This document shows, piece by piece, positions 513-58,094 of a DNA stretch of 64,000 nt; positions within the stretch are counted from its first letter, which is position 1, and each line of letters opens with the position of its first letter. This stretch comes from an uncultured Bacteroidales bacterium. Its GTDB lineage: Bacteria > Bacteroidota > Bacteroidia > Bacteroidales > UBA10428. Where the stretch lies: contig CAWBNI010000042.1 in the NCBI GenBank assembly GCA_963790105.1, positions 27,235-91,234 of the forward strand, written 5' to 3'. A program made the position numbers and the translations under genes. The notes under the pieces are model-generated. The model saw only the letters and a program-made list of their open reading frames with translations. It was not told the origin of the DNA and ran no database searches.

Positions 513-1778
513 ATGTTTGACAGAGACAGGTGGGAAGAAATTTACGCTACGCTGAGAGGAAACAAACTGCGTACCTTCATGACTGCATTCGGCGTATTCT
601 GGGGTATTTTCATGCTGGTCGTCATGATGGGCGCCGGCAATGGACTTCAAAATTCGGTTTTTGACGGTTTCCAGGATTTTGCCACCAACAGTTCCTTTAT
701 GTGGACAAGGCAAACCACTATTCCTTATAAAGGTCTGCCCCGGGGAAGATTTTGGATGTATACCAATGCGGATATGAAGGCATTGCGTGAAAATATTCCG
801 GAAATTGATCTGCTGGCACCCCGTCTCCAACCCTGGTCGGGTAATGGCGACAACAATGTGGTGCGTGGACTGAAATCAGCCTCCTATGATATATTCGGCG
901 ATTATCCCGATTTTTTCCGTATCGACCCGGTAACCATGCTGATGGGACGTGAAGTGAACAACATTGATATTAATGATAAGCGGAAAGTAGCTGTCATTGG
1001 CAACAGGGTGCGGGACGAGCTTTTCAACCCCAATGAAAATCCGATCGGACAGTATATACGCATCCGCGGGGTTTATTTCCAGGTTGTGGGGGTTTTCGAG
1101 CCCAGGAATAAAAATATGAGTTTTGGGGGTGACAAGGAAAAGTCAATTTTCATCCCGTTCACATCCCTCCAGGTGGCCTACAATATGGGAGACGAAGTGC
1201 ATTTTTTTGCTGTTACCGGAAAAGATAACATTCCGGTATCCGTTGTGGAGAAAAAATGCATGGCCCTCGTTGCCGAACGTCATAAGATTGCCCCCGAAGA
1301 TGAACAGGCTTTCGGTCACTTTAACCTGGAAGAACAGTTCAATAAAATGAAGGGTTTGTTTACGGGGATCAGCACCCTGATCTGGCTGGTGGGAATCGGA
1401 ACTCTTTTTGCCGGTGTTATTGGAGTGAGCAATATTATGCTTATTGTAGTCAAAGAAAGAACAAAGGAAATAGGAATACAGCGATCTATCGGTGCATCTC
1501 CCTGGAAAGTAATCAGCCAGATCATCATGGAATCGGTTGTGCTTACTTCTTTTTCCGGCATGATTGGATTGGTAATCGGGGTAACCATCCTTGAATTTGT
1601 TAATCACCAGATGGTGAGTTCAGGAGCCAACACCGATATGTTCAAAAATCCGGGAATTGATTTCAATATTGCCCTGACAGCGCTGGTGGTTCTTATTTTT
1701 TCAGGTATCCTTGCCGGACTGATCCCAGCGCGGAAAGCAGTCAGTGTTCGTCCTGTGGAAGCCTTACGTGCCGAGTAA
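513..1778 (+). CDS. ABC transporter permease, MacB-like (N-terminal TM + periplasmic domain + FtsX domain)
   Basis: Intact 421-aa ORF. Paralogous C-terminus to the preceding gene (ERTKEIGIQRSIGA ... RPVEALRAE). Tandem permease pair followed by an adaptor gene is the usual MacAB-like layout. Confidence 0.9.
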   Translation: MFDRDRWEEIYATLRGNKLRTFMTAFGVFWGIFMLVVMMGAGNGLQNSVFDGFQDFATNSSFMWTRQTTIPYKGLPRGRFWMYTNADMKALRENIPEIDLLAPRLQPWSGNGDNNVVRGLKSASYDIFGDYPDFFRIDPVTMLMGREVNNIDINDKRKVAVIGNRVRDELFNPNENPIGQYIRIRGVYFQVVGVFEPRNKNMSFGGDKEKSIFIPFTSLQVAYNMGDEVHFFAVTGKDNIPVSVVEKKCMALVAERHKIAPEDEQAFGHFNLEEQFNKMKGLFTGISTLIWLVGIGTLFAGVIGVSNIMLIVVKERTKEIGIQRSIGASPWKVISQIIMESVVLTSFSGMIGLVIGVTILEFVNHQMVSSGANTDMFKNPGIDFNIALTALVVLIFSGILAGLIPARKAVSVRPVEALRAE

Positions 1779-4958: not shown

Positions 4959-6275
4959 CTAATAATTCATGTAATAAATTTTGAGCTTTACCTTGCTTTC
5001 GCTGTTAATCTGGCTGCCCAGGATGAGCCTGTCTGCAGTTTTGTAGATTTCATTGGGTGTAATAGTGATCAGAAGGGCAGGAATATCATCAGTCTCTTCA
5101 ACAATTTTGGTCTGGATAAAATTGGTAACATCAAATGTGTAACTCGTTCCTTCCTGGTACTCATTGTCAATCACGAGGTTACCTACCAACGGACTTCCTG
5201 TATTCAAATTCAGAACCGGGGCTCCGAAACGGTTATACTTATCGGATTGAAACAAGCTTATTCTTTGAGGCAAAAGTATTGTATTATATGTATTTCTGAT
5301 GGGTTCAAGGATCAGTTCCGCCTTCAGTATCTGCATGTTTTGATGAAGTGCCAGGATACTTTTGAGATAGGGGACCTCAAGACGGGTGACAATTCCGGTT
5401 CCTGCCTGGATATACGATTGTTTATCGGTATATTTTGCAGATAATTTGTCCTTTTGACTTTCAGGCAAATCGATGACGGGATTGGTTATTTCAAAATGAT
5501 TAAACTGGTTAATAGCACAAGCAAAGATTCCAAAATCACGGTACTGGGAAACGCTTGTAAAATCAATATAGTGATAATATAAACGCATAACCGGCGCAGC
5601 AGAGGTGGTTTTAAAACCAACCATTGCCTCATCGGAGATATCACTTTGAATCGTCAATCCCTTGAAATAATTCAACCAGTTATCCAGTTGAAGAATGCGG
5701 TCGTCCTTGTCCAGGAAAAGCTGAAGAAGTTCCTGTCCAAGATCATCGCTCAGCCTGACAGAAACGGTATCCCGGGAAGGAGTATTGGGCCTGGGTTTGA
5801 AAGTCCTTGAACCGAGGGGATCTGCAGAATAGGCAAAATGGGAGGTATTGTACAGATAATTATCCACCCTTACCCGTATTGTCTGCTCCACCCTGTGAAC
5901 ATGAATTGTGAAAGGCTGGAGCGTATCCCCGATTCTATAGTTGTTATCCACCATGATAAGAAGAAGTGAATCATAAACGGCAGTGGAAGGAACAGTGCGG
6001 GTATCAGGCAACTGAAGTTTGAAATAGCTTGATGCAGAGATATCTCCGATTTCAGGATCATGATATTTTCCAACTACTACAGCTCCTTCCCCGTCAGGTA
6101 ATCCGGAGGTACGGAGTGAATCGAGTTTTACAGTAAAACTATTTACAGTGAGAGTATCTATATACCTCAGGTCTGTTTGCACATTAACATATTTACCTCC
6201 GATATCGAAAGATTGATTGTCCTGGTTACAGGAAAAAAAAGCGAGAAGAATCAGAATACCTAAATACTTTGTCAT
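4959..6275 (-). CDS. DUF4270-like lipoprotein
   Basis: Intact 438-aa ORF with lipoprotein signal MTKYLGILILLAFFSC. N-terminal pattern (IDTLTVNSFTVKLDSLRTSG...VVGKYHDPEIGDISA) matches my memory of the Bacteroidota DUF4270 family. Family call is from memory, not from a search. Confidence 0.65.
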   Translation of the reverse strand: MTKYLGILILLAFFSCNQDNQSFDIGGKYVNVQTDLRYIDTLTVNSFTVKLDSLRTSGLPDGEGAVVVGKYHDPEIGDISASSYFKLQLPDTRTVPSTAVYDSLLLIMVDNNYRIGDTLQPFTIHVHRVEQTIRVRVDNYLYNTSHFAYSADPLGSRTFKPRPNTPSRDTVSVRLSDDLGQELLQLFLDKDDRILQLDNWLNYFKGLTIQSDISDEAMVGFKTTSAAPVMRLYYHYIDFTSVSQYRDFGIFACAINQFNHFEITNPVIDLPESQKDKLSAKYTDKQSYIQAGTGIVTRLEVPYLKSILALHQNMQILKAELILEPIRNTYNTILLPQRISLFQSDKYNRFGAPVLNLNTGSPLVGNLVIDNEYQEGTSYTFDVTNFIQTKIVEETDDIPALLITITPNEIYKTADRLILGSQINSESKVKLKIYYMNY

Positions 6276-6671
6276 GTATACTTTTCGTTTAAACTAAGCA
6301 AAGTAAACCACCCATGAAAGGCTTTAAAAATAAAATATACGGTTACGTACAAATTTACCGACAGATTTAATATAATCATCTATATTTTTAACAATCATGG
6401 AAAGGGGTTTACAAAAAAAGATAATAAAATCGGCTGGATGCGAAAGTATTTTAATTTAGTAGATAAAAATAACAATTTCATCTTTAGATTTGCAAACTGT
6501 ATCTAAAACATTTTAATAATCCTTTCAGCGTCTCTATGTTTGCCGAATTCGCCGGAAAGTTAAAAATTATTAATAAAATGAAAACTAACATCAATTAAAC
6601 GGTAAAATCTTGAAAAAAGCATTTATATTCATCACGATTTTTTAAAGCAATTGAAAATAAAATTTAATCAA

Positions 6672-8071: not shown

Positions 8072-8786
8072 ATGAACCGGATTAATTGCCTCATTGTGGA
8101 TGATGAACCTGCTGCACTTGAAGTGCTGGAGCATTTTATAGGCAAGGTATTCTTTCTGCATCTGATCAAAAAATGTCAGCATGCCATTGAGGCCATGCAA
8201 ATCCTGGAAGAAAATAAGATCGACCTGTCTGTTTCTGGATATTAATATGCCGGATGTTGACGGGCTTCAACTGCTAAAAAGCATCAAATCAAAGCCGCTT
8301 GTTATTTTCACCACCGGTTACAAGGAATATGCCCTGAACGGATACGAGTTTGATATTGTTGATTTTCTGCTTAAGCCATTTGATTTTGAAAGGTTTCTGC
8401 GGGCTGTAAACAAAGCCAATAACCAGATCTCAAAATCCTTACGATTGCCGGTAGCGCATGCAGAAGCTCGCAGCAGTTCATCTTTGTCAAGGCTGATTAT
8501 AAACTGGTGAAAATTAACGTGGATGATATCCTGTTTGTGGAAGGACTGAAGGATTACATCAAGATATTCACAAAACAAAAGCTGATCCTGACGCTTATGT
8601 CAATGACAGCCATTGAGGAAAAGCTTCCCGCCGGATGAGTTTTTCAGGCTTCACCGGTCCTATATCATTTCTCTCAGCAAGATTGATTCGGTAAGCCGGC
8701 ACCGGGTGATTATCGGCGAAAAATTCATTCCCATCAGCGTGCCGTACAGGGAAAAGTTTTATTTGATTATTGATAAGAGTATTTAG
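8072..8786 (+). pseudogene. Two-component response regulator, LytTR DNA-binding family (frame interrupted about 3 times)
   Basis: Receiver domain (MNRINCLIVDDEPAALEVL... then FLDINMPDVDGLQLL...FTTGYKEYALNGYEFDIVDFLLKPF) and LytTR domain (INVDDILFVEGLKDYIKIFT..., FFRLHRSYIISLSKIDSV...) are spread over three frames. Stop TAG at 8784-8786. Confidence 0.8.
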
Positions 8787-8787
8787 A

Positions 8788-9072
8788 TTAGGAGGCTTAG
8801 GGGCTTAGGAGCTTAGGGGCTTAGGAGCTAGGCTGCTAGGCTACTAGGCTATAGGCTTCAGGAGTACGGCTGTTTGATATTGCCATTGTTCGGTGCTAAT
8901 ATTCACTTAAAATCAGCGTTCGCATATTCAAAGTTATTTTTAGCAAAATCAACACCGAACAATGGCAACACCAAATACTCATACTCCGAAGATTTCTAGC
9001 TCACAAATCCCTAAGCCCCTAAGCCCCTAGAAGCCCCTAAGCCCCTAAGCCCCTAGAAGCCCTAAGCCCCTA
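8788..9072. repeat. ~285-bp imperfect palindrome filling the whole convergent intergenic region: (GGGGCTTA/GGCTNCTA)n arm, inner 16-bp perfect inverted repeat, (TAAGCCCC)n arm
   Basis: Left arm 8788-8863 is G-rich on +. Right arm 9008-9072 is its reverse-complement word family and overlaps the lpdA stop. Inner inverted repeat TTGCCATTGTTCGGTG (8880-8895) / CACCGAACAATGGCAA (8953-8968) with 57-nt spacer. Confidence 0.85.
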
Positions 9073-10461
9073 AATATGAATCACCTCCCCGTACGCTGCG
9101 GCGGCGGCTTCCATCACGGCTTCCGACATGGTGGGATGCGGGTGGATGGATTTGATAATTTCGTGTCCTGTTGTTTCAAGCTTTTTGGCTATTACCATTT
9201 CTGCTATCATTTCAGTGACATTATCGCCAATGAAATGAGCGCCCAGCAATTCGCCGTATTTTGAATCGAAGATCAGCTTCACAAAGCCTTCCTTGTTTCC
9301 TGCGGCAGTTGCTTTGCCGGATGCTGTATACGGGAACTTGCCAACCTTGATATCATAGCCGGCTTCTTTTGCTGCTTTCTCGGTATATCCAACCGAAGCA
9401 ATTTCGGGAGATGTATAGGTACATCCGGGAATGTTTTTGTAATTAATGGGTTCCGGATCCTTGCCTGCAATTTTTTCCACACACACAATACCTTCTGCCG
9501 ATGCAACATGTGCCAGTGCCGGACCGGGTACAATATCACCGATGGCATAAACACCCTTTACATTCGTCCTGTAAAACTCATCAACCTTTATTTTTCCCTT
9601 ATCCGTTTCAATGCCCAGTTTCTCAAGTCCAAGATCTTCGAGGTTAGCGGTGATTCCAACGGCAGAAAGAACGATTTCAGCCTCCCTTTTCTCAACACCC
9701 TTTGGTGTCTTAATGGTTACCTGGCAGACTTTTCCGGTTGTGTCAACAGATTCCACCGAGGAGGAAGTCATCACTTCCATTCCGGCCTTTTTAAAAGATC
9801 TTTCAAGCTGTTTTGATACTTCTTCATCTTCCACAGGAACAATCGTCGGAAGAAATTCAACCAGGGTCACTTTGGTGCCAATTGAGTTGTAAAAATGGGC
9901 AAACTCGCTGCCTATGGCTCCTGAGCCGACCACCACCATGGATTGTGGCATCGTTTTGAGGGTCATGGCTTCGCGGTACCCGATAATTTTTTTCCCGTCC
10001 TGTTTCAGATTGGGTAATTCCTTTGACCGGGCTCCGGTAGCAATTATAATATGTTTGGCAGTAATTTTTGTTTCCTTTCCATCCTTGTCTGTAACGGAAA
10101 CGGTCTGGTTATCCACCAGTCGCCCGTAACCCGGGATCTGGTCAATTTTGTTCTTTTTAAAAAGAAACTGAACTCCCTTGCTCATTCCATCAGCAACACC
10201 GCGGCTGCGTTCAACCATTTTTTGTACATCAGCATGTGCTGAAGAATCAAACGTAATACCATAATCTCCTGCATGTTTCATGTAATTAAAAACCTGGGCA
10301 CTCTTAAGCAGGGCTTTTGTAGGGATGCAACCCCAGTTTAAGCATATGCCGCCAATTTCAGCTTTTTCCACTACACCCGTTTTCAGACCTAATTGTGATG
10401 CACGAATGGCCGCCACATAACCTCCCGGGCCGCTGCCAATTATAACAAGATCATAGTTCAT
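9070..10461 (-). CDS. lpdA: Dihydrolipoyl dehydrogenase (E3 component)
   Basis: Intact 463-aa ORF with FAD motif GSGPGGYVAAIRA, redox-active disulfide GGICLNWGCIPTK, NAD motif GSGAIGSEFA and C-terminal HPHPTMSEA dimer-interface motif. Confidence 0.95.
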   Translation of the reverse strand: MNYDLVIIGSGPGGYVAAIRASQLGLKTGVVEKAEIGGICLNWGCIPTKALLKSAQVFNYMKHAGDYGITFDSSAHADVQKMVERSRGVADGMSKGVQFLFKKNKIDQIPGYGRLVDNQTVSVTDKDGKETKITAKHIIIATGARSKELPNLKQDGKKIIGYREAMTLKTMPQSMVVVGSGAIGSEFAHFYNSIGTKVTLVEFLPTIVPVEDEEVSKQLERSFKKAGMEVMTSSSVESVDTTGKVCQVTIKTPKGVEKREAEIVLSAVGITANLEDLGLEKLGIETDKGKIKVDEFYRTNVKGVYAIGDIVPGPALAHVASAEGIVCVEKIAGKDPEPINYKNIPGCTYTSPEIASVGYTEKAAKEAGYDIKVGKFPYTASGKATAAGNKEGFVKLIFDSKYGELLGAHFIGDNVTEMIAEMVIAKKLETTGHEIIKSIHPHPTMSEAVMEAAAAAYGEVIHI

Positions 10462-12821: not shown

Positions 12822-12926
12822 ATGGTGGTCAAAGTTAAAAATTTATATGGGAATAGCCAGTAACCGCTTTCGTTTCATATGAACATTCTGAAGGTTTGTT
12901 TTTCGTATTATTGCAAAAAGGTTCAC

Positions 12927-13634
12927 ATGATCCAGCTTGTCCTTACCGGTGATGGTTCACATACCCTGTACATTCCTGAATTGAATGAACATTATCATTC
13001 AACTTACGGTGCATTAACTGAATCGCTTCATGTTTTTATCCGGAGCGGCCTGGATTGTTTTGCCGGCAGCCGCGAGATCTCAATTTTTGAAACCGGATTT
13101 GGAACGGGACTGAATGCACTTCTGACAGCGTTAAGTGCAATGAGGTCGGGCATGAAGGTATGGTATTTTGCCGTTGAGAAGTATCCTGTTGATCCAGAGA
13201 TAGTGAAACAGCTTAATTACCCTCATCTCCTGAAGGATGCTGAAATTGACGCTGAAGCATTATTTAATGCTATTCATGAGGCCGACTGGGAAACCATGAC
13301 TGAAATCCATCCCTGTTTTCATCTGAAAAAGATGAAAGGGGATATGTGCAGTTTTGTTCCGGATGGCAGCTATGACCTGGTTTATTTTGATGCTTTCGCG
13401 CCGGACAAGCAACCGGAAATATGGACGGGTGAGATCATGCAACGCCTTGTTTCATCGATGAAACCTGGCGGTATCTTTACCACATACTGCGTGAAAGGAT
13501 CAGTGAAACGAATTTTGAGAGATTGCGGCCTCACTTTGGAAAAACTGCCCGGCCCGCCAGGGAAGAGGGAGATTCTTAGGGGGACGAGGGACCAGGGACT
13601 AGGGACTAGGGACGAGGGACGAGGGACAGGATAG
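12927..13634 (+). CDS. mnmD: tRNA (mnm5s2U34) methyltransferase MnmD-like (MnmC methyltransferase-domain homologue)
   Basis: Inner ATG at 12927 gives MIQLVLTGDGSHTLYIPELNEHYHSTYGALTES... and SAM fold ETGFGTGLN, YFDAFAP...PEIW. The last ~18 codons (RGTRDQGLGTRDEGRGTG) are translated from the GGGACGA array. Confidence 0.65.
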   Translation: MIQLVLTGDGSHTLYIPELNEHYHSTYGALTESLHVFIRSGLDCFAGSREISIFETGFGTGLNALLTALSAMRSGMKVWYFAVEKYPVDPEIVKQLNYPHLLKDAEIDAEALFNAIHEADWETMTEIHPCFHLKKMKGDMCSFVPDGSYDLVYFDAFAPDKQPEIWTGEIMQRLVSSMKPGGIFTTYCVKGSVKRILRDCGLTLEKLPGPPGKREILRGTRDQGLGTRDEGRGTG

Positions 13635-13824
13635 GAAGAATGAACAATGTGCCGAAGGCATCCCTTCGGGAGAAAACGATTTGCTAGATGTGCCAATGTG
13701 CCAATGTGCTAATATGCCAATGTGCTAATTTTTTTCTATGTTTCTTTGTGCCATGCTAGTGCCTTTGTGGCAAAACTGCAGAACTGCAGAACCAGACTGC
13801 ATAACTGCAGAACCGTATAACTGC
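13579..13824 (+). repeat. Composite mosaic element: (GGGACNA)7 array, hairpin element hp1, (GTGCCAAT)5 array, conserved box GTGCCTTTGTGGCAAAACTGCA, (AACTGCAG)n array
   Basis: GGGACNA array 13579-13630. hp1 13638-13684, with stem CCGAAGG-catc-CCTTCGG at 13652-13669. GTGCCAAT array 13688-13729. Box 13759-13780. AACTGCAG array 13773-13824. Confidence 0.85.
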
Positions 13825-13848
13825 CGGACCTGATAGGTATAAATAATT

Positions 13849-13879
13849 AAACCCCAAAGATTTGCATCCTTTGGGGTTT
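13849..13879. terminator. Bidirectional terminator hairpin AAACCCCAAAG-atttgcatc-CTTTGGGGTTT downstream of rpmH
   Basis: 11-bp perfect stem flanked by A-run/T-run, 25 nt downstream of the rpmH stop (minus strand). Confidence 0.65.
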
Positions 13880-13903
13880 AATTTATATTTTAATTAAAAT
13901 TAT

Positions 13904-14059
13904 TTACTTACTTGCTATTTCGTCGGAAACAGTCAGTCTTTTTCTTCCCTTGGCACGGCGGCTGGATAGTACTTTGCGTCCATTGGCTGTGGACATTCTT
14001 TCCCTGAATCCGTGTTTATTGCGCCTCTTTCTGTTGGATGGCTGATATGTTCTTTTCAT
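13904..14059 (-). CDS. rpmH: 50S ribosomal protein L34
   Basis: Not in the ORF track (51 aa). My translation is [51 protein letters not shown], the universally conserved L34 sequence pattern. Confidence 0.95.
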
Positions 14060-14097
14060 TGCTGTGCTTTTTTATGTATGCTGATAAAATCGGAATG

Positions 14098-14128
14098 CAA
14101 AGGTAAATAATTTTATTTTTCATCCAAA
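14098..14128 (-). promoter_or_regulatory. Candidate Bacteroidota-type promoter of rpmH (TTTG -33 / TACCTTTG -7)
   Basis: Minus strand reads TTTG (14128-14125), 19-nt spacer, TACCTTTG (14105-14098). This fits the published Bacteroides consensus TTTG-N19-21-TAnnTTTG, ~40 nt upstream of the ATG. Confidence 0.45.
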
Positions 14129-14135
14129 TATTTTT

Positions 14136-14300
14136 GGCAATTGTTTCTTGGCAATGTGCTATTATGCTAATGTGCCAATGTGCCAATCTGCCAATGTGCC
14201 ATATGTGCCAATGTGCCAATGTTCATGAATGCCAATGCGCTAATCATATACTATCGTCTCCTTGTGCCTTAGTGCCTTTGTGGCAAAACTGCAAAACTGC
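14136..14300 (+). repeat. Composite element: (GTGCCAAT/GTGCTAAT)n array, box GTGCCTTTGTGGCAAAACTGCA, AACTGCA units. A direct copy of the module on the other side of rpmH
   Basis: Array ~14136-14245, box 14272-14293, AAACTGCAAAACTGCGG to ~14300. Same order and orientation as 13688-13824. Confidence 0.8.
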
Positions 14301-18171: not shown

Positions 18172-19827
18172 ATGAAAATTGCACTCGCTCAACTGAACTA
18201 TACCATTGGAGCATTTGATGAAAATGTAAATAAGATAATATCGGCAATCCGCAGGGCCCGGCACGACAAAGCAGCCCTGGTTGTATTTTCTGAACTGGCT
18301 GTTTGTGGTTATCCTCCCCTGGACCTTCTCGAACACAGAAGCTTTATTGAGAAATGCGATGAGTCAATAATTAAGATTGCTGCCGAATGCCGTGATATTG
18401 CAGCCATTGTTGGCGGTCCATCGGTTAATCCCAATCCATCCGGCAAAAATCTGTACAATTCAGCTTATTTTCTGGCCGATGGTTCCATTCAAAAGGTGAT
18501 TAATAAAACCCTTCTGCCCACCTATGATATCTTTGATGAATACCGTTATTTTGAGCAGAATTCCGATTTCAGTCTGATCCAATACCAGGGTTACAATATT
18601 GCTGTCACTATTTGTGAAGACCTCTGGTTTCGCCAGCCGATCCTCACAGGATTCGGAAAGAACAGGTTATATTCAGTTTGCCCGATGGACAAACTTTCTT
18701 CGCTTGGTCCCGACTTTGTGATCAATCTTTCTGCATCTCCTTTTTCATGCAACCAGGGTGAGATCAAATCGGAGATCCTAATTGACAATGCCAGGCAATA
18801 CAGGATCCCAATTTATTATGTGAACCAGATCGGAGCCCATGCCGAACTTATTTTCGATGGCGGGTCCATGGCCGTGGATGCAAGGGGTGAAATAAAAAGA
18901 ATGAAACTTTTCGAAGAGGATTTCCAGGTTGTTGATACGGAAGATACCTCCCGGGGCGAAGGATTTTCGGTATATATTGATGAGGATAATGATGTTGAAC
19001 TGATTTACCATGCCCTGGTACTGGGGATCAGGGATTACTTTGGCAAGATGGGCCTGAAATCGGGAGTACTTGGCTTATCAGGAGGTATTGATTCGGCCGT
19101 TACGCTGGCCCTGGCAAGTGAAGCGCTGGGTGCATCTTTTATGAGGGTTTTACTGATGCCTTCGCAATATTCTTCCGGTCATTCAATTACCGACGCGGTG
19201 AAACTGGCAGAAAAACTGGGTGTCCGTTACGATATAGTGGATATCCGTTCGATCTACAGCGCATTTACCGAATCGCTTTCTGACTTGTTTAAAGGCAGGC
19301 AGCCTGACCTGAGCGAAGAAAATATCCAGGCCCGTATACGTGGGAACCTGCTCATGGCAGTTTCGAACAAATTCGGAAATATTCTGCTGAACACATCCAA
19401 CAAAAGTGAAGCAGCCGTGGGATATGGCACATTGTATGGCGACATGAGCGGCGGATTGTCTGTTCTGGGAGATGTATACAAAACCGATGTTTACCGCCTG
19501 GCGGCCTACATTAACCGCAATGAAGAAATTATTCCGCTGAACACGATCATCAAGCCACCTTCCGCTGAATTAAGGCCCGACCAAAAGGATTCTGATTCTC
19601 TCCCGGAATACGATATTCTGGATAAGATCCTGTTCAATTATATCGAATTAAAAAAATCAGTTGCAGAGATCATCCAGTTGGGAATCGATGAACGGGTTGT
19701 GGTAAAAACCATTAAGATGGTGAACCAGAATGAATACAAAAGGTACCAGACTCCACCGATACTGCGTGTTTCATCAAAAGCTTTCGGATCAGGCAGGGTG
19801 ATGCCTCTGGTTGCCAAATACGAGTGA
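18172..19827 (+). CDS. nadE: Glutamine-dependent NAD+ synthetase
   Basis: N-terminal nitrilase/CN-hydrolase domain (MKIALAQLNYTIG...FSELAVCGYPP...ICEDLW) plus C-terminal NAD synthetase domain (GLSGGIDSAV...). The stop TGA lies inside the first GTGACAA repeat unit. Confidence 0.9.
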   Translation: MKIALAQLNYTIGAFDENVNKIISAIRRARHDKAALVVFSELAVCGYPPLDLLEHRSFIEKCDESIIKIAAECRDIAAIVGGPSVNPNPSGKNLYNSAYFLADGSIQKVINKTLLPTYDIFDEYRYFEQNSDFSLIQYQGYNIAVTICEDLWFRQPILTGFGKNRLYSVCPMDKLSSLGPDFVINLSASPFSCNQGEIKSEILIDNARQYRIPIYYVNQIGAHAELIFDGGSMAVDARGEIKRMKLFEEDFQVVDTEDTSRGEGFSVYIDEDNDVELIYHALVLGIRDYFGKMGLKSGVLGLSGGIDSAVTLALASEALGASFMRVLLMPSQYSSGHSITDAVKLAEKLGVRYDIVDIRSIYSAFTESLSDLFKGRQPDLSEENIQARIRGNLLMAVSNKFGNILLNTSNKSEAAVGYGTLYGDMSGGLSVLGDVYKTDVYRLAAYINRNEEIIPLNTIIKPPSAELRPDQKDSDSLPEYDILDKILFNYIELKKSVAEIIQLGIDERVVVKTIKMVNQNEYKRYQTPPILRVSSKAFGSGRVMPLVAKYE

Positions 19828-19926
19828 CAAGGGACGGGGACAAGGGACAGAATTGCACTCAGAGACAGGATATTCTGTAACCCCTACCCTGCCGCGCTTG
19901 TCCCTCTGTCCCTCGTCCCTCGTCAC
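19822..19926. repeat. Inverted heptamer arms bridging convergent nadE and recQ stop codons
   Basis: Left arm GAGTGACAAGGGACGGGGACAAGGGACAG (19822-19850). Right arm CTTGTCCCTCTGTCCCTCGTCCCTCGTCAC (19897-19926) is its reverse-complement word family. 46-nt spacer. Both stop codons are the TGA of a GTGAC unit. Confidence 0.85.
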
Positions 19927-34896: not shown

Positions 34897-35069
34897 TTGT
34901 ATATGTTTTCAGGCTAAAATTACTGATTAATAACGTATAAATACCCCCGCTTATTCTATTTAAATTAACAGGTAGGTGTTAATTATGGAACAGCAATTAT
35001 GATTTTTAATCAGTATTTTTGAAATTTAGTAATAAATCTTTTCCGACAATCATGGTTGAAGAATCAACA

Positions 35070-35145
35070 CCGGTACCAGAAGAAATAACTCCGGATACCG
35101 GAAGAAATAGCACCGATACCAGAAGAAACTGCACCTGTACCGGCT
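35070..35145 (+). repeat. 21-nt (7-codon) tandem repeat x3.5 immediately upstream of ftsE, encoding P-x-P-E-E-x-x units
   Basis: Units are CCGGTACCAGAAGAAATAACT (35070-35090), CCGGATACCGGAAGAAATAGCA (35091-35112, 22 nt), CCGATACCAGAAGAAACTGCA (35113-35133) and CCTGTACCGGCT... An ATG at 35052 lies upstream. Confidence 0.8.
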
Positions 35146-35845: not shown

Positions 35846-36341
35846 AGGAGGGACAAGGGACGAGGGACGAGGGACGAGCAGGAAATATCCTTTTAGAGGA
35901 TATCTGGCAGTAGAAGAAGTTACGGGGGATAAGGAATTCATCTGATATTATTTCCAGTTATACAATCCATTAACGATTTTGAATTTATTGGAATTACCAG
36001 AGGGTAATTTTAAAGTGGAAGGTCTTTATGTAGGGACGAGGGACGAGGGACAAGGAAGTTTTGCAGTTTTGCAGTTACTAGCGGTTCTGCGATCATGCAG
36101 TCGTGCAGTCGTGGGCAGATAAACTGTTCTGCGGTTCTGCAGTTAAGGTGCCGGAAAATGCGCGTAGCGCATTAATTATTGTAGAATGTGCAGTATGCTG
36201 CAGTTTTGAATGGTGTAGTCGAGACAGCCTCGGAGAGGCCTGATTTCAATAACCGTGGTGTACCCACGGAGAATGAGTGCGTTGTCTCTCAGCCCGAGGG
36301 CTGACAAAAATCGTAAATCGTATATCGTAAATCGTAAATCA
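35846..36341 (+). repeat. Composite mosaic region with arrays, hairpins and hp2 element A
   Basis: GGGACGA array 35846-35882. Hairpins ATATCC..GGATAT (~35886-35903) and ATTACC-agag-GGTAAT (~35993-36008). Second GGGACGA array 36030-36055. TGCAG arrays 36058-36144. Hairpin AATGCGC-gta-GCGCATT 36157-36173. hp2 copy A 36227-36269 (GCCTC-gga-GAGGC, TGATTTCAATAACC, CCGTGG-tgtac-CCACGG). AATCGTA array 36307-36341, ending 7 nt before the MORN gene ATG. Confidence 0.85.
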
Positions 36342-36348: not shown

Positions 36349-37020
36349 ATGAAAACCCAAGTCATTTTAGCATTTCTTTTCTTCCCTTTATGCCTGGCAA
36401 ATAGCCAGGAAAAAGAGGAATGCAAGGTTCTGGTCCCCGCCCTGGCCGGTGTTTATCAGGGCGGATGCAAAGACGGTCTGGCTCATGGTAAAGGCACAGC
36501 CAGCGGCACAGATGCGTATACCGGAGTGTTCAGAAACGGGTATCCCAATGGTAAGGGTACCTATACCTGGGCATCAGGCAATACTTACAAAGGTGATTGG
36601 AATATGGGAAAGCGCGACGGGGATGGAATATTTACAGGCAGATTGGATGGAAAGGATACTGTACTGGCAGGCCTTTGGAAGGATGATAATTTCATAGGAG
36701 CTAAACCTAGCCCTCCGAGAATTATAATGAAATATAATGTGGTAAGTACAACTTTTACGCGTACCGGCGATGGAAATAAAATTTCAATCTCTTTTTACCA
36801 GAATGGCATGATCAACAATGTGATGTCTTTGTCAATTGTCAGTAATTGCGGGAGTGAAGTTAAAAGTGGAAATATTACCAATTACTTTGATATTCATTTC
36901 CCCTTTCACTGTAAAATCAATTATCAGTCGTGGAATGGACTCAGAACGCAGCTTTTCGATTGTGTACTTGAATTTGAGATAACCCAGCCGGGAAGCTGGG
37001 ATCTGCGGGTGGGGAACTAA
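36349..37020 (+). CDS. Secreted MORN-repeat protein with uncharacterised C-terminal domain
   Basis: Intact 223-aa ORF with signal peptide MKTQVILAFLFFPLCLANSQ. MORN-type units (YQGGCKDGLAHGKGT, YTGVFRNGYPNGKGTYTW, YKGDWNMGKRDGDG). Confidence 0.75.
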   Translation: MKTQVILAFLFFPLCLANSQEKEECKVLVPALAGVYQGGCKDGLAHGKGTASGTDAYTGVFRNGYPNGKGTYTWASGNTYKGDWNMGKRDGDGIFTGRLDGKDTVLAGLWKDDNFIGAKPSPPRIIMKYNVVSTTFTRTGDGNKISISFYQNGMINNVMSLSIVSNCGSEVKSGNITNYFDIHFPFHCKINYQSWNGLRTQLFDCVLEFEITQPGSWDLRVGN

Positions 37021-37022
37021 GA

Positions 37023-37228
37023 AGTTCTGCGGTTCTGCAGTTCTGCAGTTCTGCGGTTATGCGGTTATGCAGTTCTGCAGTTCTGCAGTCGTGCAGGTCG
37101 GGCCTCGAAGAGGCCTCGATCTCAATAACCGGGTGTGAAAACCCACGGAAAATCGTAAATTGCAATCGGCAAATCGTAAATAGCAAATCTAAATCGTAAA
37201 TGCAATCGTAAATCGTAAATCGTAAATC
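37023..37228 (+). repeat. Composite mosaic element: (GTTCTGCA)n, hp2 element B, (AATCGTA)n. A direct copy of the module upstream of the MORN gene
   Basis: GTTCTGCR octamers 37023-37098. hp2 copy B 37101-37148 (GGCCTC-gaa-GAGGCC, TCGATCTCAATAACC, imperfect second stem). AATCGTA-type units 37150-37228, ending 5 nt before the GT4 ATG. Confidence 0.85.
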
Positions 37229-37233: not shown

Positions 37234-38434
37234 ATGTCCTCCGTTTGCATGATATCCTCCCTCCACGGTCTCTATGATGACCGTATTTATTGGAAGGAGG
37301 CCCTGTCATTAAAAAATCATGGATATGACGTGATCCATGTTACTACAGGAGACAAAGATCTGGATTTTATCTCTGAACATGGAATCCGGTTAATCCAGGT
37401 AAAAAAGAAAAGGTATTTCCGGAATCCTTATCTGGACATACTGTTCCGCAAAATTACTTTCCGGCCGGATGTATATAAAAAGATGTTTCGGATTTGCGCA
37501 GCTCTGCATGCAGATGTTTATCATTATCATGATATTCAGATAAACCGTTTCAGCAGAAAATTAAAGCAGCTTTCGCATTCCCCGGCAGTGATCTATGATG
37601 TGCATGAGGACTTTTCCGATCTTATCCTTTCCGGCAGGCCATTAAACAGTCCGGTGAGATGGTTTTTCCAGCTGTATGCGGACTGGCTCAACCGGTGGGA
37701 GCTTTCCCGCGCTTCCTCCTGTGATTTTATTATCGCTGCTGTTGATCATATTTGTCAGAAATTTGAAAAGATGGCAGCACACGGGAAAGGCAGCGGTGAT
37801 TTATAATTATACAACCCTGCAGCCTGATACGATAACGCCGGCAGAAAAAAAGAAATACGATGCCATTTATTGCGGGCAGATAAATCCGGTGAGAGGGGGA
37901 ATGGAGATTGCACAGGCAGTGGTTCTTGCAAGGAAAGTGATTCCCGGGATTAAGGTTTTGCTGCTGGGTCCGGTTCCGGATGCGCAATATAAAAAGAAAC
38001 TGCTTGATGTGATTGAAAAAAACAATCTTCAGGACAATCTGATTCTTTATGGAAATGTGCCTTATAGTGAAATCGAAACATTCTACCAGGATAGCCGGAT
38101 AGGACTTGGAATTTTCATGCCTGTGAGCATATTTTATTATGGAATTCAGATTAAGACATTTGAATATATGGCGTTTGGTCTGCCTGTTATTTGCAGTAAC
38201 TTTGGAACCATTGATCAGATCATTCGTGAAACAGGATCAGGAATTACAGTTGATCCCCGTTCTCCTGAAGCCATCAGCAACGCCCTGATTACGCTCCTTA
38301 CAGATAAAGAATTATACAAAACCTGCAGCACAAACGGAAGACTTGCAGTAAAGAATAAATACAACTGGAAAACCGAGGAAGCCAAATTGCTTGATATTTA
38401 TAGGGGACTGTCACGTTTGCACGGAAATGCTTAG
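37234..38434 (+). pseudogene. Glycosyltransferase family 4 (GT-B fold), one frame interruption
   Basis: The N-terminal half (ORF 37234-37806) and the C-terminal half with the EYMAFGLPVICSN...G motif (ORF 37676-38434) overlap in different frames. Confidence 0.75.
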
Positions 38435-38469: not shown

Positions 38470-39946
38470 TTGATATTTGGCGAAAGATCCATACATTCTA
38501 ACAGGCAGATCCGGGATTTTATCTTTTATCTTTCAGGTTCTTTGATCCTGGCCCTGATTGCAATTGTAAGGCTTCCTGTTTTTACCAGTCACTTTTCACC
38601 GGCGGAATTTGGATTGTTCAGCCTGGTTTCAATTACCTATACCTACCTTTCCGTTGCCCTTTACAATTGGATCAATTCATGTGTATACAGGTATTATCAT
38701 GAATATGAAGAAAGCGGACAGTTGCAAATTCTGTACAGCAATATTTTTCTTCTTTTTCTCACTGCCAGTGCTGTTTTGCTGCTTGTATCCGTAGCCTGGT
38801 ATATTTCTGCCGGGGGAAAAGAGATCCGATCGCTCGTGGTCCCGGCCTTTTGCTTTCTTTTTACAAACCAGATTTTCAGTATTTTGCTTGTAATTTATAA
38901 AATCCGGGGGAAGGCATTAATTTTTAACCTTTTTCAGGCGCTGCAGGCAGTTTTTTCCTTTCTTCTTATCCTCCTGTTGATTTTCAACATGAACGTGGGC
39001 ATAAATGCTATTTTTATAGGTCAGGCCGGAATAAACCTGGTATTGACCATTATTCTGCTGGTCCTGAACCGTTCTATTGCTGGGTGAAATTTCCCCGGCA
39101 TCCTTATCGGTAGTGTTTATGCGTAAAATGATGCATTACGGATTTGTTGGCTTTATCAGTTCAATGGGCATATTTATTCTTATTTCATCAGACAGGTATG
39201 TTATTGCCCTCTTTCAGGATGTAAGCCAGGTAGGGATTTATAACCAGGTTTACCAGGTGGGACAGGTGAGTGTTTACTTCCTGGTCACTGTTTTCTTCAA
39301 TACCATCACACCCGGATTCAACAAATTGCTGACGGGATTTTCAAAGGAAAATGAAAAGCATACTGATGAATTATGTGTATGCATTTGTGCTTCTCATTTT
39401 ACCCCTGACTTTTTATGTTTCCATTTTTGCCCGGCAGGTAGCGGATTTTTTATTGGGGAAGGAATTCAGGCAGGGATTTGCAATGATTCCCTGGATTGTG
39501 ACCAGTTCATTTTTATATGGACTGACCCTGTTTAACGAGACTAAAATGAAATTTGAACATCGGTTCAGGCCGGTATTATGGGGCGTTATTATTGCCTGCG
39601 TGTTGAATGCAGCGCTGAACTTTATTTTTGTGCCCTTGTGGGGATATTCATGGGCCGCTATTTCCACATTTATCGCCTACCTGTTTCTTTTCCTTTATTA
39701 TTATTTAAAGGATGATTTTCCCTACTTGCGGGATAAGGGTCTTATCAGGATTGTACTGATCAGCATGACCATCCTGTTGTCGAAATGGCTATTGATATCA
39801 TGATCAGGAAAGGATTTTCAATTGATCTCAACAAATGGTTTACCCTGGCGGAAGGAGTTGTTTTTCTGGGAATATATGTGGGATTGGTATTACGTTTCAG
39901 GCTTATCCCGGATCAGATAGTCATCATTTTATCGGAAATAGATTAG
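38470..39946 (+). pseudogene. Polysaccharide/oligosaccharide flippase (Wzx/MOP superfamily), frame interrupted about 3 times
   Basis: Polytopic membrane protein spread over ORFs 38470-39087, 39077-39535 and 39351-39803 plus a further open frame to TAG at 39944-39946. Adjacent to the GT4 gene. Confidence 0.65.
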
Positions 39947-43274: not shown

Positions 43275-44895
43275 ATGGAAATCTGTAAACAAAATATACC
43301 CTTTATAGGATCATCCATTCCCCTTTCAGATGATAAACATCACAATAAAACCTGCCGGAATTTCCGTGACAGGTTTTATTTGTTTTTGATCCTGTGCCTG
43401 ACGGGATTGCCGTTTGTTTCAGCCCAGGATTCCTTGCTGGTTCAGCATTTCACGGTTCCTGATACAACCTGTACGGTGGATGCAGCCATGCAATTGATAG
43501 AACAGCAAACCGGCCTGTCTTTTTCATATAATACGGATATCATCAACAAGAAGAAAGTCATCACCCTGCATGGCGGACCGGAATGAATTGATCCACATTC
43601 TTGAAAATACCTTTAACGATCCGCAGTTAAACTTCAGCATCATTGGACGCCATATTGTGGTTTACCAGACCCAGCGGACCCTCTCTGCCAATCCCGAAAG
43701 GCCCAGGGATTCGGTGTATTTTTTTGAGATCAGGGGAAGGGTGCTTGATAAATCGGATAAGCAACCCCTGCCTTATTCCAGTATTTATCTTTCAGGCAAA
43801 GCAATAGGAACTGTTACAAACGATAACGGGCAATTCCAGTTAAAACTGCCTTCGAAATACCTGGCTGATACGCTTATTGTTTCATGTATCGGATATAAGC
43901 GGATCAAGGCGCCGGTTTCAAGCTTCCTGAGTGAAGAAAAGGATTACCTGTTAAAACCTGATGTGATATCAATCCAGGAAGTGATCATCCGGAAAATCAG
44001 TCCGGTTAATCTGCTTCAGTCTGCCACAGAAGCGGTGTTTGAGAATTATCCCGACAAGCCGGCCATTCTCAATTCATTTTACAGGGAAATGATCAAAAAG
44101 GGAAGCCGTTATATGATGGTTTCAGAAGCTATTCTTGAAAACTATAAACCGGGCTATGACAGGACAGCAGCTTCTGACCAGGTTAAAATATCTGAAGGGA
44201 AGAAAAAGCCAGGATCCGGGAACAAAGGATACAGTGATCCTGAAACTGAAAGCCGGGCTGAATACAATGCTTCAGCTGGATGTGGTGAAAAACATGCCCG
44301 ATTTCTTAACCGGCGAAAATACGCAGGATTATGATTACAAAATGTCGGATATCGTTGTGGATAATGGAAGGGAACAATATGCCATTGAATTTTCACCTAA
44401 AAAAGGCTCGGAAAATATATTTTATAAGGGACGAATATTGCTCGATGTAAGGAATCTTGCTTTTACCTGGGTAGAATTTTATGTCGATCCGGAAAAGCTT
44501 GACATGGCAACGAAGAATTTTATTGTAAAGAAGCCTTCCTATATGAAGGTGAAAGTTCTGAAAGCCAGTTATAAAATTGCTTTCCGGTTGACAGGCAACA
44601 AGTATTACCTGCACATGATTGAATGTGAAACGGAATTCAGGATCAAGGACAGACATCAGATTCTCAGGATCGGTATATCATACAGGACTTGGAAATGGTT
44701 GTTACAGAAATTGATACCATAAATGCTGCCCGGTTCAAATTCAGGGAAACTGCCCGGTTAAATGAGTTTTTTACCGACCAGCTGGGCGCTTATGATGAGT
44801 CCTTCTGGGGGGAATATAATTTCATCAGTCCGGAAGAATCTTTGGAGCAGGCACTGGTTAAGCTGGCGAAGAAGAAAGTGACGAGTGACGAGTGA
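43275..44895 (+). pseudogene. STN-domain + CarboxypepD_reg-like protein lacking a TonB-dependent plug/barrel (about 3 frame interruptions)
   Basis: STN-like signalling domain (VDAAMQLIEQQTGLSFSYNTDIINKKKVIT...), then IRGRVLDKSDKQPLPYSSIYLSGKAIGTVTNDNGQFQLKL, then the same C-terminal region as 40204-41513. Total ~540 aa, too short for a SusC/FecA barrel. The last codons (KKVTSDE) come from the GTGACGA array. Confidence 0.6.
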
Positions 44896-45117
44896 CAAGT
44901 GACAATGTGCTAATGTGGCGAATGTGGTAGGATGTGCAAATGTGCTAATCGTGCCAATGCCATGTGCCAAAGGGCAATGTGCAAACTATGCCAACGTGCA
45001 AAACTGCAAGACTCATAAACTATATTTCTTATGTGCCATGGCAATGCCTTTGTGGCAATAACTGCAAAACTGCATAACTTCATAATCATAATTCATAATT
45101 CATAATTCTTAATTTCT
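44878..45117 (+). repeat. Continuous 240-bp chain of drifting short tandem arrays: GTGACGA, GTGACAA, TGTGCTAA/GTGCCAA, GTGCAAAAC, box, TGCAAAAC/TGCATAAC, CATAATT
   Basis: GTGACGA/GTGACAA 44878-44905. ATGTGC/GTGCCAA units 44904-45000. 10-bp palindrome TGCCATGGCA 45034-45043. Box TGCCTTTGTGGCAATAACTGCA 45045-45066. CATAATT units 45079-45117. Confidence 0.85.
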
Positions 45118-47543: not shown

Positions 47544-47783
47544 AGTGACAAGGGACAAGGGACTAGGGACAAGTCAGTTTGAATGTTGCCGAAGTCATCA
47601 CTTTGGGACACCAAAACAAATTTCGAAAATGTGAAAATGTAGACTAAGATTCAATTTGTAGAATCCTTTGTGCCTGTTGTGGCAGAAATATTCACGCCGA
47701 CTTTAGAACATTCGCTCAGAAGCCTGCAGAACCTGCAGAACTGCAGAACCTACTTGTTACTCGTCACCTGTCCCTTGTCACTC
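47543..47783. repeat. Mosaic element between convergent rlmI and MORN genes, with inverted heptamer arms
   Basis: Left arm GAGTGACAAGGGACAAGGGACTAGGGACAAGT (47543-47574). hp1 variant CCGAAGT-catc-ACTTTGG (47589-47606). Box variant CCTTTGTGCCTGTTGTGGCAGAAAT (~47665-47690). CTGCAGAA array 47722-47750. Right arm ACTTGTTACTCGTCACCTGTCCCTTGTCACTC (47752-47783), the inverted heptamer arm. Confidence 0.85.
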
Positions 47784-49894: not shown

Positions 49895-50312
49895 GATATG
49901 AGTAGGGAGTAGTAAGAAGTAAGGAGTAAGGAGTAAGGAGTAGGGAGTAGGGAGTGAGGAGTAAGGAGTAATGGAGTGAGGAGTAGGAGTAATTCCTTTA
50001 GGGGTGAGACATTGGGGCGAATAATGAACAATGAGCAATGTGCCGAAGGCATCCCTTCGGGGAGAACTATTTGCAATTTGCAATATGCAATGTGAAAAGC
50101 AAATGTGCAATGTGCTAATGTGCAAATGTGCAAATGTGCTAATGTGCTAATGTGCAAATGTGCTGACTCAGTTATGCATAAACAAGGTACATATTACCCT
50201 GGAAGAATCAAATCACTGATTTGCAGTTACTGCCATTCACCATTCACCATTCACCATTCACTTTTTCAACCGCAGAACTACCTATCAACTATCAACCATC
50301 AACAATCAACTA
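49838..50312 (+). repeat. Largest composite mosaic region (~475 bp) with six array types and an hp1 copy
   Basis: GAGAGGG/GGTGAGA and GGAGTAA purine arrays 49838-49992. hp1 50023-50074, with stem CCGAAGG-catc-CCTTCGG at 50043-50060. AATGTGC-type array 50069-50165. CATTCAC array 50233-50261. CAATCAAC array 50283-50312, overlapping the CE15 stop. Confidence 0.85.
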
Positions 50313-51683: not shown

Positions 51684-51693
51684 TAATTAGAAA

Positions 51694-51750
51694 TTTTCAA
51701 ATCTTCAAATTTTCAAATCTTCAAATCAACAAATCAATAAATCAATAAAT
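51694..51750. repeat. (TTCAAAT / ATCAATAA)n degenerate array filling the GH115-CE15 intercistronic gap
   Basis: TTTTCAAATCTTCAAATTTTCAAATCTTCAAATCAACAAATCAATAAATCAATAAATTCA, read directly. It spans essentially the whole 67-nt gap. Confidence 0.8.
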
Positions 51751-56804: not shown

Positions 56805-57000
56805 GTTCTGCAGTCCTGCGGTTTTGCAGTTTTGCAGTTTTGAAGTCATGCAGTCTCAGTCGTGCAGTCGTGCAGTCATGCAGTCGCCTTCGTGCAGTTC
56901 TGCGGTTTTGCAGTTTTGCAGTTTCAGTCACTCCCTCTCAATTCTCATCTCTCATCTCTCATCTCTCATCTCTCATCTCTCATCTCTCGTCACTCGTCAC
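56805..57000. repeat. Composite: (GTTTTGCA/GTCGTGCA)n TGCAG-type arrays, near-perfect (TCTCATC)6.5 array, inverted GTGACGA units overlapping the next gene's stop
   Basis: TGCAG-type units 56805-56929. TCTCATC array 56943-56988. GTCACTCGTCAC 56989-57000 (GTGACGAGTGAC on the minus strand), abutting the TAG stop of the minus-strand gene 57000-57911. Confidence 0.85.
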
Positions 57001-58061: not shown

Positions 58062-58094
58062 GTTTCCTGAACGAATGCCTACAGCACACCTATT

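Follow-up and report, generated by a model that had tools for sequence, protein, structure and literature searches.

The 64-kb window analysed here, a stretch of DNA from an uncultured Bacteroidales bacterium, carries between two convergent genes a spacer of 283 nt that forms a single imperfect nested palindrome (positions 8787-9069). One of the genes encodes a response regulator with a LytTR domain, and the other is lpdA, encoding dihydrolipoyl dehydrogenase. The spacer is made of two inverted arrays of the same unit, TTAGGGGC, each beginning at the TAG stop codon of one gene, within the codon or beside it. Between these outer arrays lie older layers of inverted arrays, first TAGGCTNC units and then a palindrome that contains TTCGGTG/CACCGAA. 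The symmetry is far beyond chance, and the locus belongs to a class of intergenic 7-8-nt arrays spread genome-wide in this Bacteroidales lineage. Our preferred reading combines membership of this class of stop-codon arrays with an origin by slippage and template switching and a function as a transcript-end hairpin; we give the combination an even chance of being correct.

Structure of the spacer between lpdA and the LytTR gene

The left outer array, (TTAGGRGC)x5, occupies positions 8788-8829 on the + strand. It begins 2 nt past the LytTR stop codon and is G-rich on the sense strand of that gene, with 18 G to 5 C. Tandem Repeats Finder (TRF) described it as 5.1 copies of TTAGGGGC or, alternatively, as 2.6 copies of a 16-nt unit with 96% matches. 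The right outer array (9009-9073, − strand) begins within the lpdA stop codon itself, the + strand CTA at 9070-9072 being TAG on the − strand. In the sense direction of lpdA it reads (GGGGCTTA/GGGGCTTCTA)x8, with 30 G to 9 C, and on the + strand (CCCTAAGC/CCCCTAGAAG)x8; TRF gave 7.8 copies of CCCTAAGC, or 2.6 copies of a 26-nt unit with 97% matches. The outer arms are complementary over up to 25 nt at 96% (8798-8822 against 9031-9055), and because both genes terminate in ATT-TAG the symmetry continues 7 nt into each open reading frame (ORF), the palindrome being flanked by ATTTAGATTA and TAAATATGAAT. The 16-mer made of two TTAGGGGC units has 8 matches in the window where 0.45 are expected, and the unit is confined to this locus within the window.

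Inward of the left outer arm lies a middle array, (CTAGGCTN)x4, at 8828-8860 on the + strand, delimited by TRF (3.9 copies of CTAGGCTA at 8828-8857) and by comparison with relatives. It consists of the TAGGCNTC unit, which dominates the homologous spacer of four related loci (L201, L205, L206 and L001; loci are denoted by L numbers throughout). Its counterpart on the right, at 8988-9008, is degenerate (GAAGATTTCTAGCTCACAAAT), has no assigned strand and forms interior loops in the predicted folds. The remaining core, 8861-8987, likewise without a strand, is an imperfect palindrome with 43-nt arms that are 79% complementary (8861-8903 and 8945-8987). Both copies of a perfect 16-bp inverted repeat, 57 nt apart, fall within this pair: the left copy, TTGCCATTGTTCGGTG, which contains the heptamer TTCGGTG, is at 8880-8895 on the + strand, and the right copy, located by an inverted-repeat search, is at 8953-8968 on the − strand (CACCGAACAATGGCAA on the + strand). 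The dyad symmetry reaches nearly to the centre, because a second pair of 25 nt and 72% complementarity meets near 8919/8920.

Much of this had been described in an earlier note made from the sequence alone, namely that the whole convergent spacer is an imperfect nested palindrome, that its arms are repeat arrays of which the right one overlaps the lpdA TAG, that a perfect 16-bp inverted repeat with a 57-nt spacer lies inside, and that the flanking genes are a LytTR regulator gene and lpdA. These descriptions were borne out, the arms by TRF and the genes by Pfam. The note had also proposed folding the RNA. The minimum free energy of the spacer was −132.8 kcal/mol for the + strand and −157.9 kcal/mol for the − strand as RNA, and −71.9 kcal/mol as DNA. 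The corresponding z-scores were −11.5 and −11.8 (RNA) and −10.4 (DNA), with none of 100 shuffles being equally stable. The predicted RNA duplex exceeds 20 bp, the stems consisting of 25-75 bp of imperfect repeat. No terminator-like site was found in 8500-9400 on either strand, and the spacer contains no U-tract and no T or A runs; it is therefore not a canonical intrinsic terminator, in keeping with the note's remark that such a hairpin is unusual for one. A promoter scan near the locus gave few sigma-70-like matches, at chance level, with a tool whose models omit Bacteroidetes promoters. Rfam gave no match in the whole window at gathering score; matches to miRNA precursors, which are generic hairpins, were far under threshold.

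The same gap in related genomes

Exact-sequence look-ups with lpdA, MeaB and a third protein of the window had no match on record. Orthologs of lpdA were found by homology search at 72-97% identity, and the spacers 3′ of lpdA were gathered from 13 related loci, the fold z-score being computed for all but L203 and L008; on this scale the window scored −11.0. The locus with the most similar lpdA (L201, 97% identical) has a stop-to-stop spacer of only 65 nt that is a pure hairpin of (TAGGCTTC)3 against (GAAGCCTA)n (z −4.4), and the next (L202, 96%) has only (CATAATT)3 and no such arrays (z −1.8). Three loci, L203, L001 and L204, have a 95% identical lpdA. L203 has (TTAGGGGC)n immediately 3′ of the lpdA TAG and up to the end of its contig. 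L001 has TAGGCTTC-type and GCTAATNT units together with a 13-nt remnant of the inner 16-bp repeat, AACACCGAACAA, at the corresponding place (z −1.8). L204 lacks the LytTR gene and is nested, with outer TAGGCTGT units and an inner (CACCGAA/CACCGAT)x12 array opposite TTCGAAG/TTCGGTG units (z −7.4). In L206 (94%), (TAGGCATC)7 and (GTAGCCTA)8 surround a 90-nt core with its own hairpin (z −8.9), and L205 (93%) has a simple hairpin of TAGGCTAC/TAGGCTTC units (z −5.3). Further away, there are hairpins of (GTTGTGATG)n in L003 (87%, z −4.0) and of (GTTGTAKG)n in L004 (86%, z −9.6), (TTTAGGGG)5 followed by (AGACTAAC)13 in L002 (87%, z −2.8), and a short repeat-free spacer in L006 and L008 (84-85%; z −0.3, for L006 only). 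In L026 (75%), (GGGTTTAC)15 and (TAAACCCG)16 lie on the two sides of a gene of family PF05635 (z −15.5).

The gap is thus hypervariable, with seven different spacers among strains whose lpdA genes are 93-97% identical, and most versions are dyad-symmetric. Alignment of the window with L001 showed conserved coding flanks and about 20 bases kept at each end of the spacer, the interior being unalignable. The first repeat unit contains the stop codon in the window and in L001, L002, L201, L203, L205 and L206, and inverted arrays of a single unit recur at the locus with unrelated units (TAGGCNTC, GTTGTRKG and GGGTTTAC). Units also change at another orthologous site, located where the Methyltransf_30 gene ends (13581-13627), which has GGGACGA in the window, AGGTGAG and TATGGAG in L001, AGTAACG against CATCACT in L004, GGGACRA in L005 and no array in L006. 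Location and architecture therefore recur while the unit sequence changes fast. The uniqueness implied by the earlier note did not hold, since such structures are usual at this locus in the lineage and a second complementary convergent spacer is present in the window itself (19826-19924, z = −4.3).

The PF05635 (23S_rRNA_IVP) gene, of 116 aa, lies directly 3′ of lpdA in more distant Bacteroidales (L026, 5402-6169; L034, 5390-5961; L024, 5390-5700). In L026 it sits in the loop of the repeat hairpin, as a cassette resembling an intervening sequence (IVS). Of such flanking arrays, L034 shows just the distal one and a short remnant on the left before its locus breaks off. The short metagenome contigs of two relatives stop in or soon after the repeats, L203 within the TTAGGGGC array and L202 142 nt past the lpdA stop, which suggests that the arrays break up metagenome assemblies in this lineage.

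A mobile cassette that had entered the gap between lpdA and the LytTR gene, such as a miniature inverted-repeat transposable element (MITE), would likewise present long terminal inverted repeats on both sides of a non-coding core, and the PF05635 gene directly after lpdA in L026 and L034, array-flanked in the former, shows an insert at this place. Yet neither the arms nor the core have a second copy in the 64-kb window or in 80 related loci (about 700 kb), and there is no direct target-site duplication, the flanks ATTTAG and CTAAAT being an inverted pair. Moreover, the arms consist of tandem repeats that run uninterrupted up to the two stop codons, and arrays occur at the locus in most relatives examined, in graded variants. 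We consider a mobile element highly improbable.

The earlier note had suggested looking for other copies of the inner 16-bp repeat; there are none in the window or the 80 loci beyond the 13-nt remnant in L001. A metagenome scan with the 16-mer, a query too short for that collection, returned 120 single-copy matches, none with an inverted partner, and comparison of these with the remaining spacer gave only a 22-nt stretch in L109, in apparently coding DNA. Scans of viral contigs with (GGGGCTTA)3 and (TAGGCTTC)3 returned one match each, in contigs that showed no link to the locus. The first, L207 (5400-5726), has an exact (GGGGCTTA)n at the end of a GC-rich viral contig rich in TTAGGGG-like units; the second, L208 (3430-3760), has (TAGGCTTC)n within intergenic higher-order repeats of a 173-kb phage contig.

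A class of arrays at gene ends

Across the 64 kb, TRF found 29 merged arrays of period 7-9, which make up 11.7% of intergenic bases as against 0.19% of coding bases. Arrays with 7- or 8-nt units are present in more than ten intergenic regions and belong to about a dozen unit families, for example GNGACRA, AATGTGCY, GCAGAACT/GCAAAACT, AAATCGT, AGTAAGG, ATGAGAG and CAATCAA; the first of these (right after stop codons) and the three named after it recur at several window loci. The arrays adjoin gene ends, and many begin in, or a few bases from, a stop codon. Their neighbours are ordinary housekeeping genes, for example those for a methyltransferase, an ATP-binding cassette (ABC) ATPase, MORN-repeat proteins, glycosyltransferases, NAD synthase, RecQ and an enolase-superfamily protein, and none that was seen belongs to a mobile element.

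The arrays are also polar. G exceeds C on the sense strand of the upstream gene in 18 of 19 post-stop arrays (p = 8e-5), and in the lone exception G exceeds C relative to its other neighbour gene. The array skew is +0.5 to +1.0, compared with +0.067 for coding strands, and weakly skewed arrays such as GCAGAACT and AATGTGCY exist as well. In the relatives the sense-strand polarity holds by 21 to 7, the exceptions being, by our reading, mostly the second arms of inverted pairs. If each of two convergent genes is followed by a sense-oriented array, the two arrays must be inverted with respect to one another, which explains the basic geometry of the palindrome. As genes on opposite strands only 250 nt apart are both followed by arrays that are G-rich in sense, the polarity follows transcription and not replication, and a replication-strand cause was rejected. 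The idea that the arrays act as a 'three-frame stop pad' was also rejected as a general rule: TTAGGGGC, GTGACAA and TTGATAG agree with it, whereas GGGACGA, GACAAGG and GGGTTTC do not.

Layers of the palindrome and their proposed origin

The TAGGCNTC units are, as the sequence comparison indicates, a layer common to the species cluster, which the window retains at 8828-8860. The TTAGGGGC arrays are an outer layer held in common with L203, with possible kinship to the TTTAGGGG units of L002. The TTCGGTG/CACCGAA heptamer of the inner repeat is arrayed twelvefold in L204, which suggests that the core is a further inverted-array layer. This, and the lack of other copies in the window and the 80 loci, led us to reject the idea of the inner palindrome as a foreign or mobile element.

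In the model we propose, arrays would be seeded at the stop-codon region and would lengthen and shorten through replication slippage. Each outer arm contains a recent higher-order duplication of its own (the 16-nt and 26-nt units described above). Recent growth was therefore independent and local in the two arms, as slippage would give. That a new unit occupies both arms, in turn, must reflect either transfer from arm to arm or common ancestry. Template switching at the quasi-palindrome, selection for pairing or the two together may create the complementarity of the arms or re-establish it; template switching is known to render quasi-palindromes more perfect (PMC7202029). Independent seeding of the two arms from the shared ATT-TAG gene ends was considered and found unlikely, as the two arms consist of one unit in L003 and L004 although the gene ends there differ.

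A possible role at transcript ends and alternative explanations

A transcript entering the spacer from either side would fold into a long imperfect hairpin right after its stop codon. Such a hairpin would define and protect the 3′ ends of both mRNAs and would curb read-through into the antisense of the partner gene. Lacking a U-tract, it would have to work through RNase III, through Rho or simply by virtue of its long duplex. The tandem-repeat arms could pair in many registers, so that gain or loss of whole units would leave the hairpin intact, which would explain how the structure survives despite its fast turnover. A role as a U-tract-free transcript-end hairpin serving both genes is, on these predicted folds, likely.

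Several observations weigh against the combined reading. The spacer lacks a canonical terminator with a U-tract. Symmetry is weak or absent in the close relatives L001 and L202 and missing, along with the arrays, in L006 and L008. The window has five convergent spacers with an array at each end, and in only two of them are the arrays complementary. In L206 the arms are homogenised to unlike variants, TAGGCATC and TAGGCTAC, so correction between arms is not continuous. Finally, the window is probably an indel-prone assembly, as described below.

Some of the same facts would follow if the arrays were a neutral by-product, that is, functionless slippage tolerated in intergenic DNA, with an accidental palindrome resulting from arrays of common descent and occasional template switching, and a polarity reflecting a transcription-coupled mutational bias. 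The very fast turnover, with loss of arrays or symmetry in the close relatives just named, fits this explanation, as does the asymmetry of most convergent spacers in the window; for comparable repeats the literature has not established a function (PMC4692102; PMC4679880). However, the G over C bias of the arrays is far above the skew of coding strands, inverted arrays of a single unit recur at the locus with unrelated units, and the arrays extend exactly from stop codon to stop codon. We regard a purely neutral origin as possible but lean against it.

The polarity could instead serve Rho. Rho requires C-rich, G-poor RNA, and the nearly universal polarity gives just such antisense RNAs, (GCCCCUAA)n, (UCGUCCC)n and (CUCUCAU)n, which might act like Rho utilisation (rut) sites that end antisense or read-through RNA, the hairpin being incidental. 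A precedent is the partly Rho-dependent termination at REP325 of Escherichia coli (bioRxiv 10.64898/2026.03.23.713779). In the predicted fold, however, the C-rich arm forms a complete duplex with the G-rich arm of its own transcript and would thus be hidden from Rho, and several arrays (GCAGAACT, AATGTGCY) are barely skewed. Polar Rho loading as the primary function is in our view distinctly unlikely.

The earlier note had likened the unit to telomeric G-strand repeats and pointed to its potential for G-quadruplex (G4) or i-motif formation. Of these only the G4 potential stood, and for one arm. A canonical (G3+N1-7)x4 motif is present at 9009-9070 on the − strand, which is the sense strand of the lpdA mRNA; the left arm has fewer than four G3 runs on the + strand and does not qualify. 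By this motif, G4 potential is limited to one arm and is not general. A G4 formed by (GGGGCUUA)n in the lpdA 3′ untranslated region (UTR) might control expression or mRNA decay, and some observations speak for such an element. The window has four canonical motifs where 0.2 are expected, all on the sense strand at gene 3′ ends (the other three, at 13579-13625, 35850-35873 and 36990-37014, are on the + strand at the ends of plus-strand genes), and comparable GGGNATC repeats form G4 structures in vitro (PMC4692102). Yet only 4 of the 19 post-stop arrays are G4-capable, the GTGACAA, AGTAAGG, ATGAGAG, GTTGTAG and TAGGCTTC units being incapable, and the complementary C-rich arm in the same transcript favours a duplex. 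None of the telomere features tested was found, either. We think a G4 or i-motif element very unlikely here. The telomere likeness is superficial: it extends only to a short G-rich unit containing TTAGGG, whereas the arrays are chromosome-internal between syntenic genes, run in both orientations 180 nt apart, start at stop codons and represent one of about a dozen unit families.

Returning to the transcript-end hairpin, a wider version can be formulated for the lineage as a whole, although we think it unlikely in this strong form. Stop-codon-seeded arrays would be standard 3′ UTR material, inverted pairs would be regenerated by template switching and selected as register-tolerant, U-tract-free hairpins that end convergent transcripts, and their loops would be able to host inserts of the PF05635 type. 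If true, the arrays would constitute a distinct, fast-evolving class of transcript-end elements whose architecture is kept while the sequence turns over.

Relation to known repeats

Short tandemly repeated repetitive (STRR), GGGNATC and TAACTGA sequences, all of the heptamer class, have been known for decades, and the papers cited here could not assign them a function. The present locus is a striking local case of this known but unexplained class; it comes from a lineage new to the class, and its architecture is dyad-symmetric. The closest kind described are the G-rich heptamer repeats GGGNATC and GGGGAYT of Xanthomonas and Nostoc, which are genome-wide, non-coding and found on coding strands no more than 50 bp from a stop codon (PMC4692102). 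They are transcribed, G4-capable and hypervariable at a single site among close relatives, and have no tie to mobile elements or gene classes, their function being left unresolved (PMC4692102). Inverted heptamer copies, in which stem-loop and G4 compete, are mentioned by Rehm et al. 2015 (PMC4692102). The Bacteroidales arrays agree with them in the 7-nt class of unit, the non-coding bias, the post-stop sense polarity and the variability at one site. They differ in that the unit at the window locus is of 8 nt (TTAGGGGC), there are a dozen or more unrelated families instead of one consensus, G4-capable units are in the minority, the arrays occur in an uncultured Bacteroidales bacterium, and those of the same unit form inverted pairs that run from stop to stop in nested layers. 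The 8-nt unit, the many families per genome, the predominance of non-G4 units and the nested stop-to-stop inverted pairs are the four points that distinguish the present case from the known class. In the literature searched, no characterisation of array pairs with the same dyad-symmetric architecture was found.

TAACTGA repeats occur in Beggiatoaceae, Cyanobacteria and a few Bacteroidetes, mostly just 5′ of start codons and in forward orientation, with 1 of 170 sets inverted (MacGregor 2015, PMC4679880). Slippage has been proposed as the origin of these and of STRR, syntenic relatives lack the arrays, and no function is known (PMC4679880). Long simple sequence repeats (LSSR; Mrazek 2007), as summarised in the same paper, are a related intergenic class. 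STRR and TAACTGA resemble the present arrays as intergenic tandems of the heptamer class at many loci, with a sporadic phylogeny that includes Bacteroidetes; here, by contrast with TAACTGA, the arrays are chiefly post-stop and form inverted pairs, and no unit sequence is in common. With the LSSR, STRR and G-rich simple sequence repeat classes together, the arrays share head-to-tail units of 5-11 nt, a non-coding bias over multiple loci, post-stop sense G-richness (including both arms of the locus) and variation among relatives.

Other known systems resemble the spacer in part. Repetitive extragenic palindromic (REP) units and the bacterial interspersed mosaic elements (BIME) built from them are likewise extragenic palindromes in 3′ UTRs, including those between convergent genes, and by analogy we propose a similar role. 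REP units are conserved, about 35 nt long and present in hundreds of dispersed copies, and they are mobilised by REP-associated tyrosine transposases (RAYT). The window locus consists instead of local tandem repeats without a dispersed copy in the window and the 80 loci; within the window its unit sequence is confined to the locus, and no search for a RAYT gene was made. In E. coli, REPs in 3′ UTRs act both as terminators and as stabilisers, convergent genes separated by REPs are more highly expressed, and REP locations differ among strains (bioRxiv 10.64898/2026.03.23.713779). Bidirectional intrinsic terminators, similarly, place between convergent stops a single hairpin potentially usable by both transcripts. 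In their canonical form an A-tract and a U-tract enclose a short GC-rich stem (5-20 bp, with a loop of 3-8 nt), whereas the spacer has stems of 25-75 bp and no T or A runs. IVS stems of 23S rRNA are processed by RNase III. In L026 the inverted arrays form a long stem around the PF05635 insert, as in 23S rRNA IVS cassettes, but the insert in the window has no ORF and no similarity to PF05635 cassettes and is outside rRNA.

A single orthologous gap between two housekeeping genes is thus seen in at least a dozen variants, ranging from no repeat through a 65-nt pure hairpin to a 283-nt nested palindrome. The lineage is an unusually clear natural experiment on whether such repeats define mRNA 3′ ends, and on how palindromes built from microsatellites arise and persist. 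In practical terms, the arrays matter for the assembly of metagenome-assembled genomes (MAGs), where they are suggested to break contigs, and for annotation, where they may lengthen the called ORFs.

Flanking genes and reliability of the sequence

The LytTR response regulator gene (8072-8786, + strand, TAG stop at 8784-8786) was identified by Pfam Response_reg and LytTR matches on ORF pieces, and lpdA (9070-10461, − strand, 463 aa, TAG stop at 9070-9072) by Pyr_redox_2 and Pyr_redox_dim matches. The former is broken by three frame changes in the window, and its ortholog in L001 (the closest GTDB genome, which like that of the window is a contig_-named MAG from the MFD isolate series) is likewise split (5631-6336); it is intact, with 236 aa, in L004 (a k-mer-named MAG) and L201 (contig_-named). 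Further window genes are split as well, for example at 37234-38434, 38470-39803, 43570-44722 and 48623-49894. This points to residual indel errors of a probably long-read assembly, and not to pseudogenes; the long-read origin of the window and L001 assemblies is inferred from the record names alone. Because the LytTR gene is intact in these relatives, the window is probably an indel-prone assembly, in which repeat copy numbers are perhaps slightly off.

Such errors raise the question of whether the palindrome itself is an artefact, either a fold-back or a collapsed palindrome in a long-read assembly. The frameshifted genes are typical of uncorrected long reads, and the short contigs of relatives stop within the arrays (L203) or shortly past them (L202). 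However, the palindrome is flanked by two different genes that are syntenic in relatives, a similar spacer design is found in L003, L004, L205 and L206, which come from other assembly sources (k-mer-named MAGs and JGI contigs), and the L203 contig, from a Logan public sequencing run, reads CATATTTAGGGGCTTAGGGGCTTAGGGGCTTAGG before it ends inside the array. On these three grounds the palindrome is real, and an assembly artefact is extremely improbable. One further lpdA gene, 77% identical to that of the window, is on a 4.4-kb contig (L019) of a Beggiatoaceae MAG labelled Candidatus Marithrix, which is probably mis-binned Bacteroidales DNA.

Other repeats in the window

The intergenic regions packed with 7-/8-nt arrays are 13581-14300, 19826-19924, 35848-36340, 37023-37228, 44877-45114, 47547-47751, 49853-50313, 51691-51750, 56805-57001 and 58093-58173. 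Arrays of GGGACGA and GAGGGGA overlap the 3′ ends of called ORFs (12879-13634 and 48623-49894, respectively) and may thereby add variable C-terminal tails or distort the ORF calls.

Several other elements accompany the arrays. A conserved stem-loop, (AA)TGT(T)GCCGAAGGCATCCCTTCGGG, is present in three copies (13651-13669, 47588-47606 and 50042-50060), each tens of bases 3′ of post-stop heptamer arrays and, in two of the three cases, followed by AATGTGCY arrays. It resembles a dispersed modular 3′ UTR element and has neither a U-tract nor an Rfam match. A two-hairpin module, CCTCGRAGAGGCC .. (C)AATAACCG.GGTG...CCCACGG, also without an Rfam match, occurs at 36228-36275 and 37095-37150, with a related copy in L001 at about 700-760 (reverse); in the window it precedes (AAATCGT)n arrays whose ends lie 6-9 nt ahead of the start codons at 36349 and 37234. 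A composite element, (AATGTGCY)n followed by ..GTGCCTTTGTGGCAAAACTGCARAACTGC.., has direct copies at 13680-13830 and 14150-14300. These flank a minus-strand gene (13899-14060) that reads as that for ribosomal protein L34 (rpmH). The rpmH gene of L003-L005 has the same direction as the methyltransferase gene upstream of it and that of the window the opposite one, which suggests that the segment between the repeat blocks has been inverted. Lastly, a 21-nt tandem repeat (GAAGAAACAACACCGGTACCA, four copies) at 35058-35141 lies just 5′ of the ABC ATPase start at 35153 and, unlike the remaining arrays, has a period that is a multiple of three.

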